From a virus (Duplodnaviria; Heunggongvirae; Uroviricota; Caudoviricetes): a stretch of 4,898 nucleotides of DNA. The notes beneath the pieces were generated by a model. It was not told the DNA's origin. It saw nothing but the letters and a program-made list of their open reading frames with translations, and searched no databases. Below are positions 947 through 4,697 of this stretch, in pieces (within the stretch, counting starts at the first letter, position 1; the number at the start of each line of letters is the position of its first letter). The translations under genes and the position numbers were made by a program. Location: the IMG/VR virus record IMGVR_UViG_2778261453_000012; one strand, given 5' to 3'.

Positions 947-1291
947 TTACTTTAATAATTTCAGTGCCTTTACATCAACTTCAACACTGCTCAGGTCTTT
1001 ATCAATTTCACCCTCAATTCTTACTTTGTCTTTCGGAGAAACATTCTGCCCGGCCCATACGCTGTCATCAATATCCGTGACAATTGTCCCGCTATTGTCA
1101 CGAAACTCATAACGTTCATCACCCACTTTTTTAACGATGCTCCCTTCAAGGATAACCCATGCATCATCCTTCAGTTCTTTTGCCTGCGCTACTGTTGAAC
1201 GCTCTGCTTCTGGCCCCTGGAAACCACCCTGCTGTGCAAAAGCGCCAAAAGACACACCGGAAATAAGTGCTGCAATCAATACCTTTTTCAT
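947..1291 (-). CDS. YgiW/YdeI (BOF, bacterial OB-fold) family periplasmic protein, 114 aa, with N-terminal signal peptide
   Basis: MKKVLIAALISGVSFGAFA|QQGGF...: typical Sec signal with AxA cleavage site, then the QGGF start characteristic of mature BOF proteins, and a C-terminal motif ...DKVRIEGEIDKDLSSVEVDVKALKLLK. SD AGAGGA 7 nt before the ATG. Confidence 0.8.
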   Translation of the reverse strand: MKKVLIAALISGVSFGAFAQQGGFQGPEAERSTVAQAKELKDDAWVILEGSIVKKVGDERYEFRDNSGTIVTDIDDSVWAGQNVSPKDKVRIEGEIDKDLSSVEVDVKALKLLK

Positions 1292-1348
1292 TCATAGTCC
1301 TCTTTCAGAGATGAACATTCAAACAGCATTTTCAGTATGGTAAAGCGC

Positions 1349-1403
1349 GGGTGCGTTGAGGATGCCTGACACATCAGAGGTGGCGGGAGATTACTCCCCC
1401 GCC
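1349..1403 (-). promoter_or_regulatory. 3' elements of the hok transcript: fbi-like box (1349-1361, CCUCAACGCACCC on the RNA) and a 3' stem-loop (1382-1403)
   Basis: The fbi-like box is complementary to the predicted mRNA 5' end GGGUGCUUGAGG (plus 1724-1735), 12 bp with one bulged C. The stem-loop GGCGGGGGAG-uaau-CUCCCGCC lies just after the hok stop and has no U-tract, so it is not a classic terminator. Confidence 0.45.
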
Positions 1404-1410
1404 TGGTCTC

Positions 1411-1566
1411 TTACTTCTCAGATTCGTAGTCTACGAAGACAGCGACCTCCGTCTGACCGGTTCGGATTCGCACCTCGCAGAGGTCTTTCCTCGTTACCAG
1501 TGCCGTCACTATGACGGTTAAACAGATGACGATCAGGGCGATTAACATCGCCTTTTGCTGCTTCAT
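1411..1566 (-). CDS. hokD: Hok/Gef family type I toxin (51 aa small membrane toxin), closest from memory to HokD/RelF
   Basis: MKQQKAMLIALIVICLTVIVTALVTRKDLCEVRIRTGQTEVAVFVDYESEK: hydrophobic TM segment followed by the conserved TRKDLCEV.IR.G..EVA.F motif of Hok proteins. SD AAGGAG about 8 nt upstream of the ATG at 1566. Confidence 0.85.
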   Translation of the reverse strand: MKQQKAMLIALIVICLTVIVTALVTRKDLCEVRIRTGQTEVAVFVDYESEK

Positions 1567-1623
1567 AGCCTGCTTCTCCTTGCCTTTCGGCACGTAAGAG
1601 GCTAACCTACATGTGTTCAGCAT
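1411..1623 (-). CDS. Mok-like leader reading frame (70 aa), in-frame N-terminal extension of hok starting 19 codons upstream
   Basis: ATG at 1621-1623 with upstream AGG (ctgAGGctcaatccATG). Extension MLNTCRLASYVPKGKEKQA precedes the hok Met. No start codon exists in the alternative frame that is open across hok. Confidence 0.4.
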   Translation of the reverse strand: MLNTCRLASYVPKGKEKQAMKQQKAMLIALIVICLTVIVTALVTRKDLCEVRIRTGQTEVAVFVDYESEK

Positions 1624-1692
1624 GGATTGAGCCTCAGATTAATGTTAAGCGTCTTGCAGGACGCGTAATGTTAACTGGGGCTTTTCTCTATC
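1615..1692 (+). ncRNA. Candidate Sok-like antisense RNA (about 70-80 nt), antisense to the hok leader and mok start
   Basis: Plus-strand candidate promoter -35 TTGCCT (1580-1585), 17-nt spacer, -10 TAACCT (1603-1608). Downstream imperfect inverted repeat 1633-1680 (outer stem CCTCAG/CTGGGG, inner GCGTC-ttgcag-GACGC, flanked by 9-bp direct repeats TAATGTTAA) followed by CTTTTCTCT. Position and length match what is expected for Sok. The -10 is weak. Confidence 0.35.
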
Positions 1693-1770
1693 TGCCGTTG
1701 GTGTTCATGCCCGAGGCAGATAGCCTCAAGCACCCGCAGCAATTCTACTTAACTATCCTTTTCCCGCAAA
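1688..1770 (-). promoter_or_regulatory. hok promoter and 5' leader: -35 TTGCGG (1769..1764), 16-nt spacer, -10 TAGAAT (1747..1742), predicted TSS near 1735, tac-like 5' box (1735..1724), leader stem with 9-bp perfect inverted repeat (1688-1696 / 1715-1723)
   Basis: Elements read directly from the sequence. The predicted transcript 5' end GGGUGCUUGAGGCUAUCUGCC resembles my memory of the R1 hok mRNA 5' end (GGCGCUUGAGGCUUUCUGCC). Confidence 0.45.
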
Positions 1771-1856
1771 CCGTTTTTATCCCCAGCGGCAAATCGAATA
1801 CACCACCAGCGCCACCGCCATCGCAATTCCTACCGTTGTGAATGCTTCAGGCCAGG

Positions 1857-2414
1857 TCATTGATTCACCTCCTGCGGCGGTTCTGGTAGCGACATCCAGT
1901 GGGTTGCTTGCCTAAGATCATTACCCGGACTAACTGCTATACCTCCGCGCCGGAACGTGCCTCCGAGATAGCGTGCGGAATATATTAATGGCCCAGCCTC
2001 GCTATCGATATTCATCGAAATAAGCACGTTCTGGCTCTTTTCAGGCATTCGCTCAGTACAGCTTATCCAGCCATCCAGAGTTATCGGAGATCTGGTTGAC
2101 GTTTCCGAGATTTCCCGAAAATTGTTGGTTGACGAATTCTTATTTTCCCGAAAGTTTCCGGCCTGAAGCATGGCGACGCGGCAGGCGTTCCAGCCATCAG
2201 CATATGTTTTAGTTACACCGTCGAGATGGCAGGTAAGCAAATCCATTTCATCAGGCACTACCATTGCTATCGGCTCTGCTTCCAGTGATGCCAGCGCGAT
2301 ACGAAACACATTAGCCAGCAGGCTGTCTGAAGACTTGTTATCGTGCGCCGAGTCGCTCAGGAAGCCTGTGATGTATGATTTAATCTCCGCGCGTTCTCTG
2401 GTAATAGTGCTCAT
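1857..2414 (-). CDS. DUF551-type prophage protein, 185 aa (variable N-terminal domain plus C-terminal DUF551-like domain)
   Basis: C-terminal region ...DGWISCTERMPEKSQNVLISMN...ATHWMSLPEPPQEV matches the W-I-S-x-x-E-R-(L/M)-P-E ... T-H-W-M-P-L-P-E-P-P signature I recall for DUF551. ATG at 2412-2414 is one nt after the stop of the upstream gene, with AAGGA inside that gene's 3' end. Confidence 0.75.
   Translation of the reverse strand: MSTITRERAEIKSYITGFLSDSAHDNKSSDSLLANVFRIALASLEAEPIAMVVPDEMDLLTCHLDGVTKTYADGWNACRVAMLQAGNFRENKNSSTNNFREISETSTRSPITLDGWISCTERMPEKSQNVLISMNIDSEAGPLIYSARYLGGTFRRGGIAVSPGNDLRQATHWMSLPEPPQEVNQ
2094..2159 (-). repeat. Imperfect tandem duplication of a 33-bp (11-codon) unit inside the DUF551-protein gene
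   Basis: ggttgacg at 2094-2101 and again at 2127-2134; tttcccgaaa at 2111-2120 and 2144-2153. Protein-level repeat NFRENKNSSTN / NFREISETSTR in the inter-domain linker. Confidence 0.55.
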
Positions 2415-2415
2415 A

Positions 2416-2634
2416 TCAGTTTTCCTTATACGGATTAATTTTATTGTGCAGTGCGCTGAATGATTCCCATGTCACATCGGTATATAGCTCAATAACTGGT
2501 TCAAATGTCCTTCCAATTATCCAGACCAGTAATAGCGGGGATATCGGTATCATCAACACTATAAACAGAATGAAAAACAGAAACTCTGTTGTTCTGCTCT
2601 TTCGTGGGTAATTTTTTTCTAAATAATGTTTCAT
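2416..2634 (-). CDS. Small hydrophobic membrane protein, 72 aa, function unknown
   Basis: MKHYLEKNYPRKSRTTEFLFFILFIVLMIPISPLLLVWIIGRTF...: basic N-terminus followed by a ~25-residue hydrophobic segment. Sits in an AT-rich islet (about 36% GC by eye) and is translationally coupled to the downstream DUF551 gene. Confidence 0.6.
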   Translation of the reverse strand: MKHYLEKNYPRKSRTTEFLFFILFIVLMIPISPLLLVWIIGRTFEPVIELYTDVTWESFSALHNKINPYKEN

Positions 2635-2640
2635 TTCTTA

Positions 2641-2662
2641 CCGCCCTTTCGGGCGGCCTCCT
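2641..2662 (-). promoter_or_regulatory. Structured translation-initiation region: perfect SD AGGAGG (2662..2657) separated from the ATG (2634) by a 6-bp GC stem with GAAA tetraloop (2656..2641)
   Basis: Minus strand: catcAGGAGG-CCGCCC-GAAA-GGGCGG-taagaaATG. The SD is 22 nt from the ATG in linear sequence, about 6 nt if the hairpin is folded. No U-tract on either strand, so not a terminator. Confidence 0.4.
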
Positions 2663-2761
2663 GATGTTCTGAGGGTGCAGGAATCCCTCCGGTTAAGGAT
2701 TTAATAAAAATCGTTTCTGATTTAAATCTTCAGTATTTAGTTGTTAGTTGGTTTATCGCCT

Positions 2762-3073
2762 TTATGCTTCAGCCTTATTTCGCAACCAGACACAAACCGG
2801 GCCATCTTCCGTATCATGAATGGAACCAATAAACCAGCCATCGCCCTCTGGTCGTTCCGGTTCCCATGCAGAAATATCAGCATCACACGCATCAAGGTCA
2901 GCACATCCTTCATCTCTGAAGCAGAGGACGTATTGAAGATTATTTTCCTCCATCCAGGCGTTAAACTCTTCCGTTGAAATATATTCCCGACCATCACAGA
3001 ATTTTTCATATTCAGGATGTGTCCAGTAGCCATATCCGTCACGAACTACCGGCATTTCTTTAATTTCACTCAC
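2762..3073 (-). CDS. Hypothetical acidic protein, 103 aa
   Basis: GTG start at 3071-3073 preceded by perfect SD (gcAGGAGGttaacaGTG); overlaps the upstream stop by 8 nt. Sequence VSEIKEMPVVRDGYGYWTHPEYEKFCDGREY... is D/E-rich. An internal ATG at 3053-3055 is an alternative start. Confidence 0.65.
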   Translation of the reverse strand: MSEIKEMPVVRDGYGYWTHPEYEKFCDGREYISTEEFNAWMEENNLQYVLCFRDEGCADLDACDADISAWEPERPEGDGWFIGSIHDTEDGPVCVWLRNKAEA

Positions 3074-3293
3074 TGTTAACCTCCTGCAACGCTACACGAT
3101 ACGCCTTCTTTATCCACGCCTTACTGCCATATAATTTCGTCTTCATAATAAACACACCTGCACGACTCGCCGATATCCCCGGACAGGTTAACAGCACAGC
3201 ATCCACCACACGGTTATGCTTCCGAAACTCCATTACAGTACTGCTGATAACCACCTGCCCCACCGGGCCGTAATCCTGATACAGGATTTTCAC
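3066..3293 (-). CDS. Hypothetical protein, 75 aa
   Basis: GTG start at 3291-3293 preceded by AGGAGG with 8-nt spacing; start overlaps the upstream TGA (GTGA overlap), indicating translational coupling. Confidence 0.55.
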   Translation of the reverse strand: MKILYQDYGPVGQVVISSTVMEFRKHNRVVDAVLLTCPGISASRAGVFIMKTKLYGSKAWIKKAYRVALQEVNSE

Positions 3294-3571
3294 GCAGACA
3301 CCCTCCTGTCGAAATAAACGTAGTTATTCACTATGCGCAGCGGCATGCCTAATTTTCTGGCAATTTCCCTTCTTTGCATGCCTCTCTGATGCAGTTGCCG
3401 CGCCAGCTCAATATCACGCTGAGAATATTTTGCCAACGGGTGAAAATCACCACGTAACATCATGCTGATGCCCAGCTCCCGTGCCTTCGTTCTCACTGCC
3501 GCTTCAGTTCGTCCGATAAGTGCGCCAACGCTTTTTACCTTCATCGTTCCCGCACACTGCCGGAGTATCAT
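3290..3571 (-). CDS. Putative helix-turn-helix DNA-binding protein, about 85-93 aa (start ambiguous: ATG 3571 or ATG 3544)
   Basis: Two HTH-like segments: KSVGALIGRTEAAVRTKARELGIS and YSQRDIELARQLHQRGMQRREIARKLGMPLRIV. The track's longer form begins with GTG at 3694 inside the upstream gene; I prefer an internal ATG downstream of the upstream stop at 3604. Confidence 0.55.
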   Translation of the reverse strand: MILRQCAGTMKVKSVGALIGRTEAAVRTKARELGISMMLRGDFHPLAKYSQRDIELARQLHQRGMQRREIARKLGMPLRIVNNYVYFDRRVSA

Positions 3572-3603: not shown

Positions 3604-4266
3604 TCACCGCTGCTGTTCTCTGGTGGCGGTAATATCCCGGAGAATATCCCGGCACTTGTTCAGCTCCCGCAGCGCGGCGCAGACTCGCTCCCACTTCTGA
3701 ACCTGACCTTTTGCCCGGCGCAGCTCGCGGTTAGCCACATGCAGCGATGGTAAAATCAGACCATCCGGATGCTTTCTGGTGAACGACGGCTGTGACTGCA
3801 CTGTGACCGCCACACTTTCCGTTTTTATTTCTTCCTGTGTTTCCGCTTCCCCGACTGGTAACGCAACACCTGCTGGCTGAGGAAAGGCTTTACCATCCGT
3901 TTCCGTTATGGATGCGGCTTTCGGCTCTGCCGGTAAATCAGCGCCCGGTATGCAGTACCGAAATTTACCGCCCTGATTCACGCGAATCAGACGCCCTTTG
4001 CTGATTGCCATGGCCAGTGATGAATTCGCCCGGCGGGAGGTAATCCCGAACATCAGTGCCAGCTCATCCGCCGTTTGTGGGCCATGATGTTCAATCGCCT
4101 CAGTCAGCATTTGCGCTGTCACTTTCGGTACCGGTGACACTGGTTCACTTTCACCAGCCTGAATCAGCCACCACATCGAACCCTTGTTATCCGCTTCACC
4201 ACGGCGCTTCAGTTTCCACAGTTCGTTGACAGCATCTTCGCGGCTGATTCCAAGGCGCGATGCCAC
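3604..4266 (-). CDS. Hypothetical winged-helix-like DNA-binding protein, 220 aa (start uncertain: GTG 4266 overlapping the DnaC-like stop, or internal ATG near 4176 with AAGG SD)
   Basis: Segments [21 protein letters not shown] and [39 protein letters not shown] look like winged-helix motifs; the C-terminus is charged and helical-looking ([31 protein letters not shown]). Confidence 0.6.
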
Positions 4267-4697
4267 TACACGCTCATGACATCAGACACGGTGACGATAA
4301 TCACGCTGCGCCCCTTCGCCATCAGCCGGTTACCCATCGCCGCTGCAAGGTGATTTTTCCCGGTGCCGGTTTTACCGCTGAACACAAAATTCGTGCACCC
4401 GGTCATCAGTTCGTCAGCTATGGATTTGGCCTGGCTCAGCGCGTATTTTTGCCCGTCGTTCTGCACCTGATAATTCGCAAACGAGCATTTGCTGTGCAGA
4501 GGCTGGATGCCCGAACGATTCAGGATTTTTTCCACCCGCAACTGGTGATTCTGGCGGTTAATCTCCTCGCTGCGTTTTCGTCCTTCAACAAGTTGCCATT
4601 CCCGCCACTCCTCCACCGTCCGGTACGGTGGAACCGACGCCTGTGGTGCAAGTCTGCGAATACGTTCAAGAACCCCGGCTGCCGCAATGTTTTTCAT
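4266..4697 (-). CDS. DnaC-family replicative helicase loader homologue, truncated: 143 aa covering the N-terminal region and Walker A only
   Basis: ...[73 protein letters not shown] aligns to E. coli DnaC (NCSFENY...[18 protein letters not shown]...GKSVLIITVADIMSAM) as I remember it. The ORF ends with TAG where DnaC continues about 100 more residues (Walker B DLLVIDE absent). SD AGGGGG upstream. Confidence 0.75.

Follow-up and report, generated by a model that had tools for sequence, protein, structure and literature searches.

A portable Shine-Dalgarno and hairpin cassette ahead of DUF4014 and other accessory genes of Escherichia coli prophages: a candidate split ribosome-binding site

The DNA analysed here is a stretch of 4,898 nucleotides (IMG/VR record IMGVR_UViG_2778261453_000012), referred to below as the window, that comes from an enterohaemorrhagic E. 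coli (EHEC) lambdoid prophage and carries all of its genes on the minus strand. One of these genes encodes a 72-residue protein of the DUF4014 family, and in the leader of this gene a strong Shine-Dalgarno (SD) sequence is separated from the start codon by a very stable hairpin. The leader is a portable cassette that is not specific to DUF4014, a property that was absent from the initial annotation of this DNA. It is very common, was previously undescribed and is probably a variant of a rare kind of ribosome-binding site (RBS), the DUF4014 family itself being already known. By analogy with gene 38 of phage T4 we propose, at about even confidence, that the leader acts as a split RBS bridged by the hairpin. 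The sequence, predicted stability, conservation, portability and geometry of the leader were obtained here; we infer two things, namely initiation by ribosomes from the distal SD with the hairpin in between, and recombination inside the cassette.

The leader of the DUF4014 gene and its likeness to T4 gene 38

The leader and the gene behind it consist of the following features.

2657..2662, minus strand: SD sequence AGGAGG, directly adjoining the hairpin at its 5' base; linear distance to the AUG 22 nt
2641..2656, minus strand: hairpin CCGCCC-GAAA-GGGCGG, six G-C pairs and a GNRA tetraloop, in both the minimum free energy (MFE) and the centroid structure of RNAfold
2635..2640, minus strand: 6-nt spacer UAAGAA from the stem to the AUG, opening with a conserved UAA and containing no SD-like triplet
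2416..2634, minus strand: DUF4014 gene, 72 residues, ATG start (Pfam PF13198, phrog_1832, RefSeq WP_000683609.1)

The start codon of the DUF4014 gene is the ATG at 2634-2632, and the hairpin takes up 16 of the 22 nt that separate it from the SD. The initial annotation had described AGGAGG 22 nt upstream of the start together with a perfect 6-bp GC stem and a GAAA loop, and both the sequence and the RNAfold check that it proposed (stem present in MFE and centroid, -12.4 kcal/mol) bear this description out, with the SD and the hairpin displaced by one base from the position that they would be given at first glance. An optional seventh pair, a G.U between G2657 and U2640, would bring the stability to -14.4 kcal/mol. 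Removal of the 16-nt hairpin leaves AGGAGGTAAGAAATG, in which the SD stands at an ideal spacing of 6 nt. The leader has three of the features of a T4-type split RBS: a linear distance from SD to AUG that is too long for direct use, at about 20 nt or more (here 22), a stable local hairpin, and an effective spacing of about 5-11 nt (here 6).

The predicted energetics were calculated for the hairpin both kept and opened. With the hairpin kept, freeing the SD, the spacer and the AUG is predicted to cost 2.3-3.9 kcal/mol, whereas linearising the whole region from SD to AUG would cost 19-20 kcal/mol, against a predicted gain of -8.6 to -10.3 kcal/mol from SD:anti-SD pairing. The AUG and the spacer are predicted to be mostly open. 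Predictions keep the stem folded up to 80-90 °C, its pairing probability in silico being 0.93 at 80 °C. The initial annotation had raised the possibility that translation is switched by melting of the hairpin; a stem that is paired at more than 0.9 at 80 °C makes this unlikely, and the roughly 19-20 kcal/mol required for linearisation compared with about -9 to -10 kcal/mol from SD:anti-SD pairing does not support it either. From these energetics the hairpin is best seen as a permanent bridge and not as a gate. An RNA thermometer was also considered and set aside, as the SD core and the AUG both lie outside the stem and the stem remains paired at 80 °C. The same applies to an intrinsic terminator: beyond the stem the sense strand reads UAAGAAAUGAAAC and the antisense strand CCUCCUGAUG, and neither contains a U-tract. 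A coding explanation for the hairpin was likewise discarded, as in the window it is not crossed by any open reading frame (ORF) that has a start codon. The first in-frame stop upstream of the DUF4014 ATG is a TAA two codons before it.

In 1000 dinucleotide shuffles of the window, an SD followed by a perfect stem of at least 6 bp and an ATG was expected 0.016 times. On the shuffles alone, a chance origin of the arrangement is only moderately unlikely. It is the conservation of the leader in hundreds of loci, rather than the shuffle odds, that marks the feature as real.

We propose that the strong AGGAGG abuts a constitutively folded GC stem of 6-7 bp with a GAAA tetraloop, and that the AUG lies 6 nt beyond this stem. 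The folded hairpin would loop out 16 nt and reduce the separation of SD and AUG to an effective 6 nt, to which the width of the helix base has to be added. A 30S subunit bound to the SD by base pairing would then have the AUG positioned in its P site, as experiments have shown for T4 genes 38 and 25. In this way the cassette may allow the gene to be initiated on its own, where older relatives rely on coupling to an ORF upstream. The same sequence of 26-70 nt heads several blocks of accessory genes, and probably serves as a patch of homology for the exchange of these blocks as well.

A comparison with T4 gene 38 had been made in the initial annotation and proved apt. Read directly, the T4 gene 38 initiation region consists of AAGGAG, a GC stem with a UUCG loop (-13.0 kcal/mol), AAAU and AUG; in general terms, a GGAG precedes a GC-rich stem that bears an ultra-stable tetraloop, and 4 nt of A/U spacer lead to the start codon. 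According to a review, the structure reduces a spacing of 22 nt to 5 nt in this T4 gene (PMC3014915), and in gene 25, at the gene 26-25 junction, a structure reduces 27 nt to 11 nt (Nivinskas 1999 and Malys and Nivinskas 2009, summarised in PMC3014915). Mutations that destabilise the structures of genes 38 and 25 reduce initiation, and the structures are found only in close relatives (PMC3014915). In both the gene 38 leader and the present one the linear SD-AUG distance is 22 nt, a GGAG-type SD is located at the 5' base of a GC stem, the stem carries an ultra-stable tetraloop and the A/U spacer is short; their stabilities are similar (-13.0 kcal/mol in T4 and -12.4 or -14.4 kcal/mol here). They differ in that the T4 hairpin has a UUCG loop with the SD partly in the stem, while the loop here is GAAA and the SD lies outside. 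Additionally, the T4 element, which mutational work has put to the test, serves a single gene in a virulent phage, whereas the present candidate is borne by temperate phages and occurs in multiple copies before unrelated genes.

Extent, distribution and conservation of the cassette

Beyond the SD and the hairpin, the leader in the window extends further upstream, and three nested elements can be distinguished.

2638..2705, minus strand: leader cassette in its long form, AATCCTTAACC - GGAGGG N9 CCCTC - N8 - AGGAGG - hairpin - TAA
about 2638-2664, minus strand: minimal core TC-AGGAGG-hairpin-TA[AG], common to all contexts
2671..2689, minus strand: weaker upstream hairpin GAGGG-AUUCCUGCA-CCCUC (RNAfold, RNAalifold), within the long form

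At least two upstream contexts were found. The core is preceded either by the rest of a long cassette of about 63 nt, as in the window, or by a 70-residue ORF whose TAA lies four bases before the SD. The weaker hairpin at 2671-2689 is not part of the core because it is absent from the second context. The TA[AG] after the stem is kept in most copies. The long form holds two SD-like segments (GGAGGG and AGGAGG) and two anti-SD-like segments (UCCU and CCCUC). RNAalifold pairs UCC with the GGA of the real SD, a pairing that is neither supported nor dismissed by the alignment, as the bases are invariant in 54 distinct copies.

A 71-nt query covering the cassette matched 3278 places in 2339 of 5426 complete E. 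coli genomes (about 43%), with up to four places per genome and with no annotation under any of them. A scan of 1300-3200 against Rfam by E-value returned only noise at the leader; no Rfam family matches the cassette, and a known RNA family was therefore rejected. The Pas small RNAs of enteropathogenic E. coli and EHEC prophages come from the same kind of prophage and were also set aside; they are located beside lysis genes and not at this position. In 1.77 Mb of lambdoid DNA searched for other designs in which an SD, a hairpin and an ATG follow one another, only this cassette recurs. In its range the cassette appears narrow: BLAST of a phage collection returned only Escherichia-type records, a scan of species-representative genomes for wider homologues yielded only E. 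coli and Shigella flexneri, and the K-12 Rac prophage holds no copy. In Rac-SA53 (locus L205, KU052037.1, positions 418-1183) an IS1 is inserted about 20 nt into the ORF behind the cassette, and the stem there has two C>U changes (CCGUCU), both of which preserve pairing as G.U.

BLAST matches that spanned the leader without the coding sequence pointed to a wider use of the cassette. Among the loci that were fetched, it precedes at least six unrelated ORF families, whose start codon (ATG, in a few GTG) comes 6-11 nt behind the stem. This distance is 6 nt for DUF4014, 7 nt for a 60-residue acidic protein, 9 nt for a protein of 135-155 residues, 10 nt for each of two further ORFs, and 11 nt for a 174-residue ORF. 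The spacer contains no SD-like triplet in five of these six families. The cassette is found with varying combinations of upstream and downstream neighbours. In four loci (L219, L240, L274 and L283) a single prophage has two identical copies of the SD and hairpin at a distance of 1064 nt; the DUF4014 block lies behind one of them and a block that opens with the 60-residue acidic protein behind the other, and the small genes within these blocks are tightly coupled. The mixed neighbours and the two copies 1064 nt apart fit with exchange at the cassette.

In the second upstream context a mini-ORF of nine codons (ATG TCA GGA GGC CGC CCG AAA GGG CGG TAA) crosses the SD and the hairpin. Its start shares bases with the upstream stop (TAATG), and its end lies 3 nt ahead of the ATG of DUF4014. 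The mini-ORF is absent from the window and was seen in L219 (reverse strand, about 5190-5250) as well as in L055, L060, L074 and others. It is possible that it forms a termination-reinitiation relay that would unfold the hairpin.

Short stem-loop cassettes have been described before in T4-type phages as PeSLs, which combine a sigma-70 promoter with a terminator stem-loop (Arbiol et al. 2010, PMC2839356). Like these, the present cassette is a short, repeated and conserved intergenic stem-loop element that flanks non-essential, variable genes at the joints of modular shuffling, and it was found to be repeated, intergenic and bordering variable accessory genes. It differs from the PeSLs in that it has no consensus for a sigma-70 promoter or a terminator and carries an SD, and so would act at the level of translation.

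DUF4014 leaders were sampled in IMG/VR through the protein as an anchor, so that the sample is unbiased with regard to the leader, and 174 loci had a resolvable start. The hairpin-type leader accounts for 114 of these, all with ATG starts. The remaining 60 have no hairpin and carry AAAGGAGAGTGAT followed by GTG (in most) or ATG, with GGAG 6-7 nt before the start and with an upstream stop one base before it. The homologues in phages epsilon15, g341c, ES18, HK225, D6 and 933W all directly abut an upstream ORF and have no hairpin. The coupling of these distant, hairpin-less homologues to an upstream ORF argues that the hairpin is the derived state. As judged from the leader sequences, the hairpin appears where the DUF4014 gene is not coupled to an upstream ORF. 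T4 gene 25 presents the same pattern, with its structure in close relatives and ordinary sites in distant ones. The two cases differ in that the T4 element is found at a fixed gene junction and the cassette described here moves between junctions.

Conservation was measured as nucleotide diversity over 46 distinct hairpin-type DUF4014 loci, and variants of the stem were collected from copies of the cassette. Diversity was 0.016 for the 16-nt hairpin, compared with 0.088, 0.065 and 0.161 for the first, second and third codon positions of the gene and 0.37 further upstream. The GGAG core is essentially invariant in all copies of the cassette, whereas the bases that flank it vary. Most stem variants are C>U changes that would keep a G.U pair on the sense RNA (C4, C6, C4+C6 and C14), and the one change seen in the loop, GAAA>GGAA, remains a GNRA sequence.

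Weighing the split RBS against other explanations

We favour the split-RBS reading because the GGAG is invariant and flush with the stem and because the distance from the stem to the start codon is constrained across unrelated genes. Several observations weigh against it. In the context of the window the SD itself is predicted to be mostly paired with the upstream UCC(U), with an unpaired probability of 0.02-0.13, although the predicted cost of opening it is small (0.9-2.6 kcal/mol). Three of the stem variants are disruptive (G11>U, G3>A and C2>G), and with four G.U-preserving types set against these three disruptive types, the C>U bias in the stem is only suggestive. No double-sided compensatory substitution was found at any stem pair among the 54 distinct cassettes. 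Diverged copies with such changes were not found because the species-representative scan and the BLAST of phages yielded only Escherichia-type and S. flexneri sequences. By these alignments the hairpin is conserved as a sequence and not just as a structure, and near-invariance extends over the whole long-form cassette of about 63 nt, beyond the SD and stem, which a split RBS leaves unexplained. The 174-residue cassette-led gene, alone among the six, has a GGAG of its own in the spacer. Finally, a good SD is missing from about one third of E. coli genes, and the A/U-rich spacer and early codons could support initiation that is independent of the SD.

This last possibility leads to the alternative that survives best, which we nevertheless consider unlikely: the hairpin would serve mRNA stability, processing or insulation, as a barrier to 3' exonucleases or as an insulator from upstream structure, and DUF4014 would initiate without the distal SD. 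Such a role is consistent with a stem that is very stable and always intercistronic, with A/U-rich and predictably open sequence in the spacer and first codons, and with the conservation of the entire cassette instead of the SD and stem alone. It leaves unexplained why an invariant GGAG lies flush with the 5' base of the stem and why a start codon follows within 6-11 nt in six unrelated genes. Relatives that have no hairpin keep a GGAG at canonical spacing, which argues that the DUF4014 gene relies on an SD.

It is less probable still that the cassette has no RNA function of its own and has spread recently by homologous recombination between prophages as a linker of modules, the hairpin being incidental. 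Near-identity without covariation, the mixed combinations of flanking neighbours, the restriction to Escherichia and Shigella prophages and the presence of several copies per genome would all fit a linker. Against it, the diversity of the cassette is about one tenth of that found at the neighbouring third codon positions, whose history of recombination is the same. Stem changes are also biased to the strand-specific, G.U-preserving type, and the chance that an SD, a perfect stem and an ATG arise together is low.

A third alternative, which we regard as improbable, is an operator role for the hairpin, in which an RNA-binding protein of the phage or the host would act in trans, bound between the SD and the AUG, and would coordinately repress or activate the blocks headed by the cassette. 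A GNRA hairpin with invariant sequence and flanks, present in multiple copies per prophage and accompanied by three GGA motifs within 45 nt, would suit such a protein, and the cassette bears a loose resemblance to the lambda boxB (GCCC-GAAA-GGGC) and boxA (UCCUUAAC) sequences. The analysis identified no candidate factor. A lambda-type nut site was rejected: the boxA consensus is absent, the cassette is found deep in operons of the nin and early-left (ea) regions and not just after promoters, and the pL and pR leaders of mEp460, a phage that bears the cassette, contain no similar hairpin.

A gate that permits translation when melted, or an intrinsic terminator or attenuator, is considered excluded: the hairpin does lie inside the translation initiation region, but neither the SD core nor the AUG is in a stem that is predicted to be paired at 80 °C, the melted spacing of 22 nt would be non-functional, no U-tract follows on either strand and the terminator scan was empty.

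The split-RBS reading can be extended to the cassette as a whole. Tentatively, and with less confidence than for the split RBS itself, we suggest a mobile translation-initiation module of E. coli lambdoid prophages, a counterpart in translation of the T4 PeSLs, which would provide a split RBS to any gene that lands behind it and a homology patch for swapping nin and ea blocks, with a common factor possibly reading all of the copies. The invariance of the cassette at the level of sequence could mean that one such factor reads every copy, which would result in coordinated control of accessory genes.

The hairpin-bridged RBS has been a textbook curiosity known from two T4 genes. If ribosomes do initiate across the present hairpin, the design would be neither rare nor specific to a gene, but a reusable part carried by roughly four of ten sequenced E. 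coli genomes, Shiga-toxin phage lineages included, where it heads blocks of accessory genes. Gene finders and predictors of RBS strength, which penalise a 22-nt spacing, would then mis-score the genes that it leads, and the cassette would bear on how prophage accessory genes are expressed and exchanged. It would also be a compact natural part for synthetic biology. One 16-nt stem with a strong SD forms a clean and inexpensive system for studying the fit of a helix into the 30S subunit between SD and P site.

The DUF4014 protein, its partners and the surrounding prophage region

The remaining features concern the genes and the spacer on either side.

1857..2414, minus strand: DUF551 gene, 185 residues (Pfam PF04448, 5e-20), the commonest coupled partner of DUF4014
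2412..2427, minus strand: coupling junction AAGGAAAAC-TGA-T-ATG, with the DUF4014 stop TGA at 2416-2418, one base, and the DUF551 ATG at 2414-2412
2706..2761, minus strand: AT-rich spacer between the 103-residue gene and the cassette, which travels with the upstream gene in Rac-SA53 and mEp460
2762..3073, minus strand: 103-residue gene (phrog_1372), the upstream neighbour, ending 127 nt before the DUF4014 start

The 72-residue ORF is a genuine accessory gene of lambdoid prophages. The initial annotation had predicted a small membrane protein from the ORF, and the gene proved to be real and conserved, its homologues keeping the ORF. The product matches Pfam DUF4014 (PF13198), a family of about 70 residues from enterobacterial phages and prophages, over its full length (residues 1-72 on the complete 72-position profile; 87.2 bits, gathering cut-off 23.2; 1e-24), here with 72 residues and in EHEC prophage DNA. 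It also matches phrog_1832 (1e-44), and the RefSeq protein is already annotated as 'DUF4014 family protein'. Diversity is higher at the third codon position than at the first and lowest at the second, and this order also holds in codons 2-17, where synonymous diversity exceeds non-synonymous diversity; the protein is therefore made from the annotated ATG.

The protein has a basic N-terminus, one hydrophobic helix (about residues 18-40) and a conserved acidic C-terminal tail ending in LHNKINPYKEN. From this arrangement of basic N-terminus, hydrophobic core and acidic tail it is probably a single-pass inner-membrane protein with the N-terminus inside and the C-terminus outside. An AlphaFold2 model consists of a single long, kinked helix (residues 14-66) with a pLDDT of 79. 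Searches for toxin, holin, exclusion or defence families gave no Pfam match beyond DUF4014, and searches with PADLOC, NCBIfam and the PDB were empty. The role as a toxin, a holin or a superinfection-exclusion factor that the initial annotation had raised is thus neither supported nor contradicted. Two database labels, 'O-polysaccharide acetyltransferase inhibitor' and 'released from the phage upon host infection', are similarity transfers that point at epsilon15 gp46; no experimental test behind either was found in the searchable literature, which also yielded no mention of DUF4014, of the hairpin sequence or of the 'acetyltransferase inhibitor' label. The Gnarl small proteins that modify the O-antigen (PMC12373910) are set apart here by their description only, in which gnarl1 and gnarl3 belong to lytic phages and gnarl2 is a Mu gene. 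As DUF4014 is very common, any phenotype of the protein would be of interest.

The family is narrow and belongs to lambdoid phages of E. coli and Salmonella. A scan of one genome per species found DUF4014 only in the representatives of E. coli and Shigella flexneri, and tblastn found it in 125 phage records, including the Stx phages 933W and VT2-Sakai as well as HK225 and D6. Identity is 47-50% in the Salmonella phages epsilon15, epsilon34, g341c and ES18. The homologues 933W L0067, epsilon15 gp46, ES18 gp39, g341c gp23 and HK225 gp57 (47-76% identity, all of the 72-residue family) resemble the gene in the window in that they are located in accessory early regions and usually have another small gene, often DUF551, 1-3 nt downstream. 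They differ in their position, as they lie in the ea region, coupled upstream and without a hairpin, whereas the copy in the window lies in a nin-type region behind the cassette. In phage D6 (NC_050154.1, L332; positions 683-1138), a P1-like plasmid prophage, the DUF4014 sequence is the N-terminal part of an annotated 152-residue ORF, pointing to a fusion or to the loss of a stop. The cassette (97% identity) and a DUF4014 gene (76% amino-acid identity to the window) also occur at about 11347-12567 of PP818812.1 (Actinobacillus phage vB_Apl-pPE4), a record whose label makes it a phage of Actinobacillus pleuropneumoniae; its host label or its assembly may be wrong.

Translational coupling of the gene to DUF551, also claimed in the initial annotation, is supported by the geometry of the junction: of 74 distinct DUF4014 contexts, 70 have a stop and a start separated by one base (TGA-N-ATG), and the downstream partners belong to six or more unrelated families, among them DUF551, an 87-residue protein and an HNH endonuclease. 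The pairing of DUF4014 with DUF551 is also present in Salmonella phage epsilon15 (gp46/gp47). The SD of the next gene (AAGGA) is formed by the last DUF4014 codons, AAG GAA; in the window and the 74 related contexts, these conserved codons double as the SD of whichever gene comes next. Because of this double use, part of the conservation of the C-terminus may be a constraint at the nucleotide level. DUF4014 is regularly the first gene of a coupled pair, which fits with a strong and independent initiation site. It cannot itself be coupled to the 103-residue gene, which ends 127 nt before its start.

The region from 2416 to 2761 had been singled out for its low GC content, and a sliding comparison confirms this. 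Its GC is 0.382 against 0.508 for the whole window, only 0.5% of windows of equal length are lower, and the minimum begins at 2411, so that 2416-2761 is essentially the lowest region of its length. The GC of the DUF4014 coding sequence is 0.356 and that of the 127-nt intergenic part is 0.425. The further proposal that this islet of about 350 bp was acquired as one insert is not supported. Homology is interrupted at about 2406-2415, 2632-2640 and 2705, and the islet is therefore made of three pieces with separate histories, namely a coding-sequence module, the leader cassette and the AT-rich spacer. No promoter consensus was found in the AT-rich spacer of the window or at the cassette in two other contexts (L039 and L041), and a promoter of the gene's own, as in the moron model, was rejected on the lack of a sigma-70-like site there. 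The terminator scan returned 0 sites within 1800-3400 and none at the cassette in L039 or L041. Without a promoter or terminator consensus beside it, the DUF4014 gene is not a classical moron.

The segment 2300-2900 is 100% identical to many chromosomes of serogroups O157, O26, O111, O121 and O145 (EHEC prophage DNA). The gene order on the minus strand is a truncated DnaC/IstB-like gene, DUF1627, a helix-turn-helix protein, a 75-residue ORF, the 103-residue ORF, the 72-residue ORF, DUF551, hok/sok, a BOF/YgiW-like gene, a 90-residue ORF and the start of DUF968. The window is a nin-type region, between the replication genes and the late regulator, and the DUF4014 gene is read on the minus strand within the rightward early operon of this region.

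Three further observations were made in the window. A complete type I toxin-antitoxin locus of the hok/sok type lies at 1411-1735 (minus strand), with a Hok/Gef ORF (Pfam, 1e-22) and a sok antisense RNA that matches Rfam RF01794 over its full length (113.5 bits). A BOF/YgiW-like gene for a periplasmic OB-fold protein (947-1291, minus strand) is followed by a terminator-like hairpin at 931-909 (9 bp, then a T-run), the only one in that part of the window, and the unit 909-1291 looks like a self-contained unit of the moron type. At 4266-4697 (minus strand) the DnaC/IstB-like ATPase ORF stops at profile position 132 of 238 and runs directly into the start of DUF1627; the replication-loader gene thus appears to have been truncated at its 3' end through a deletion.

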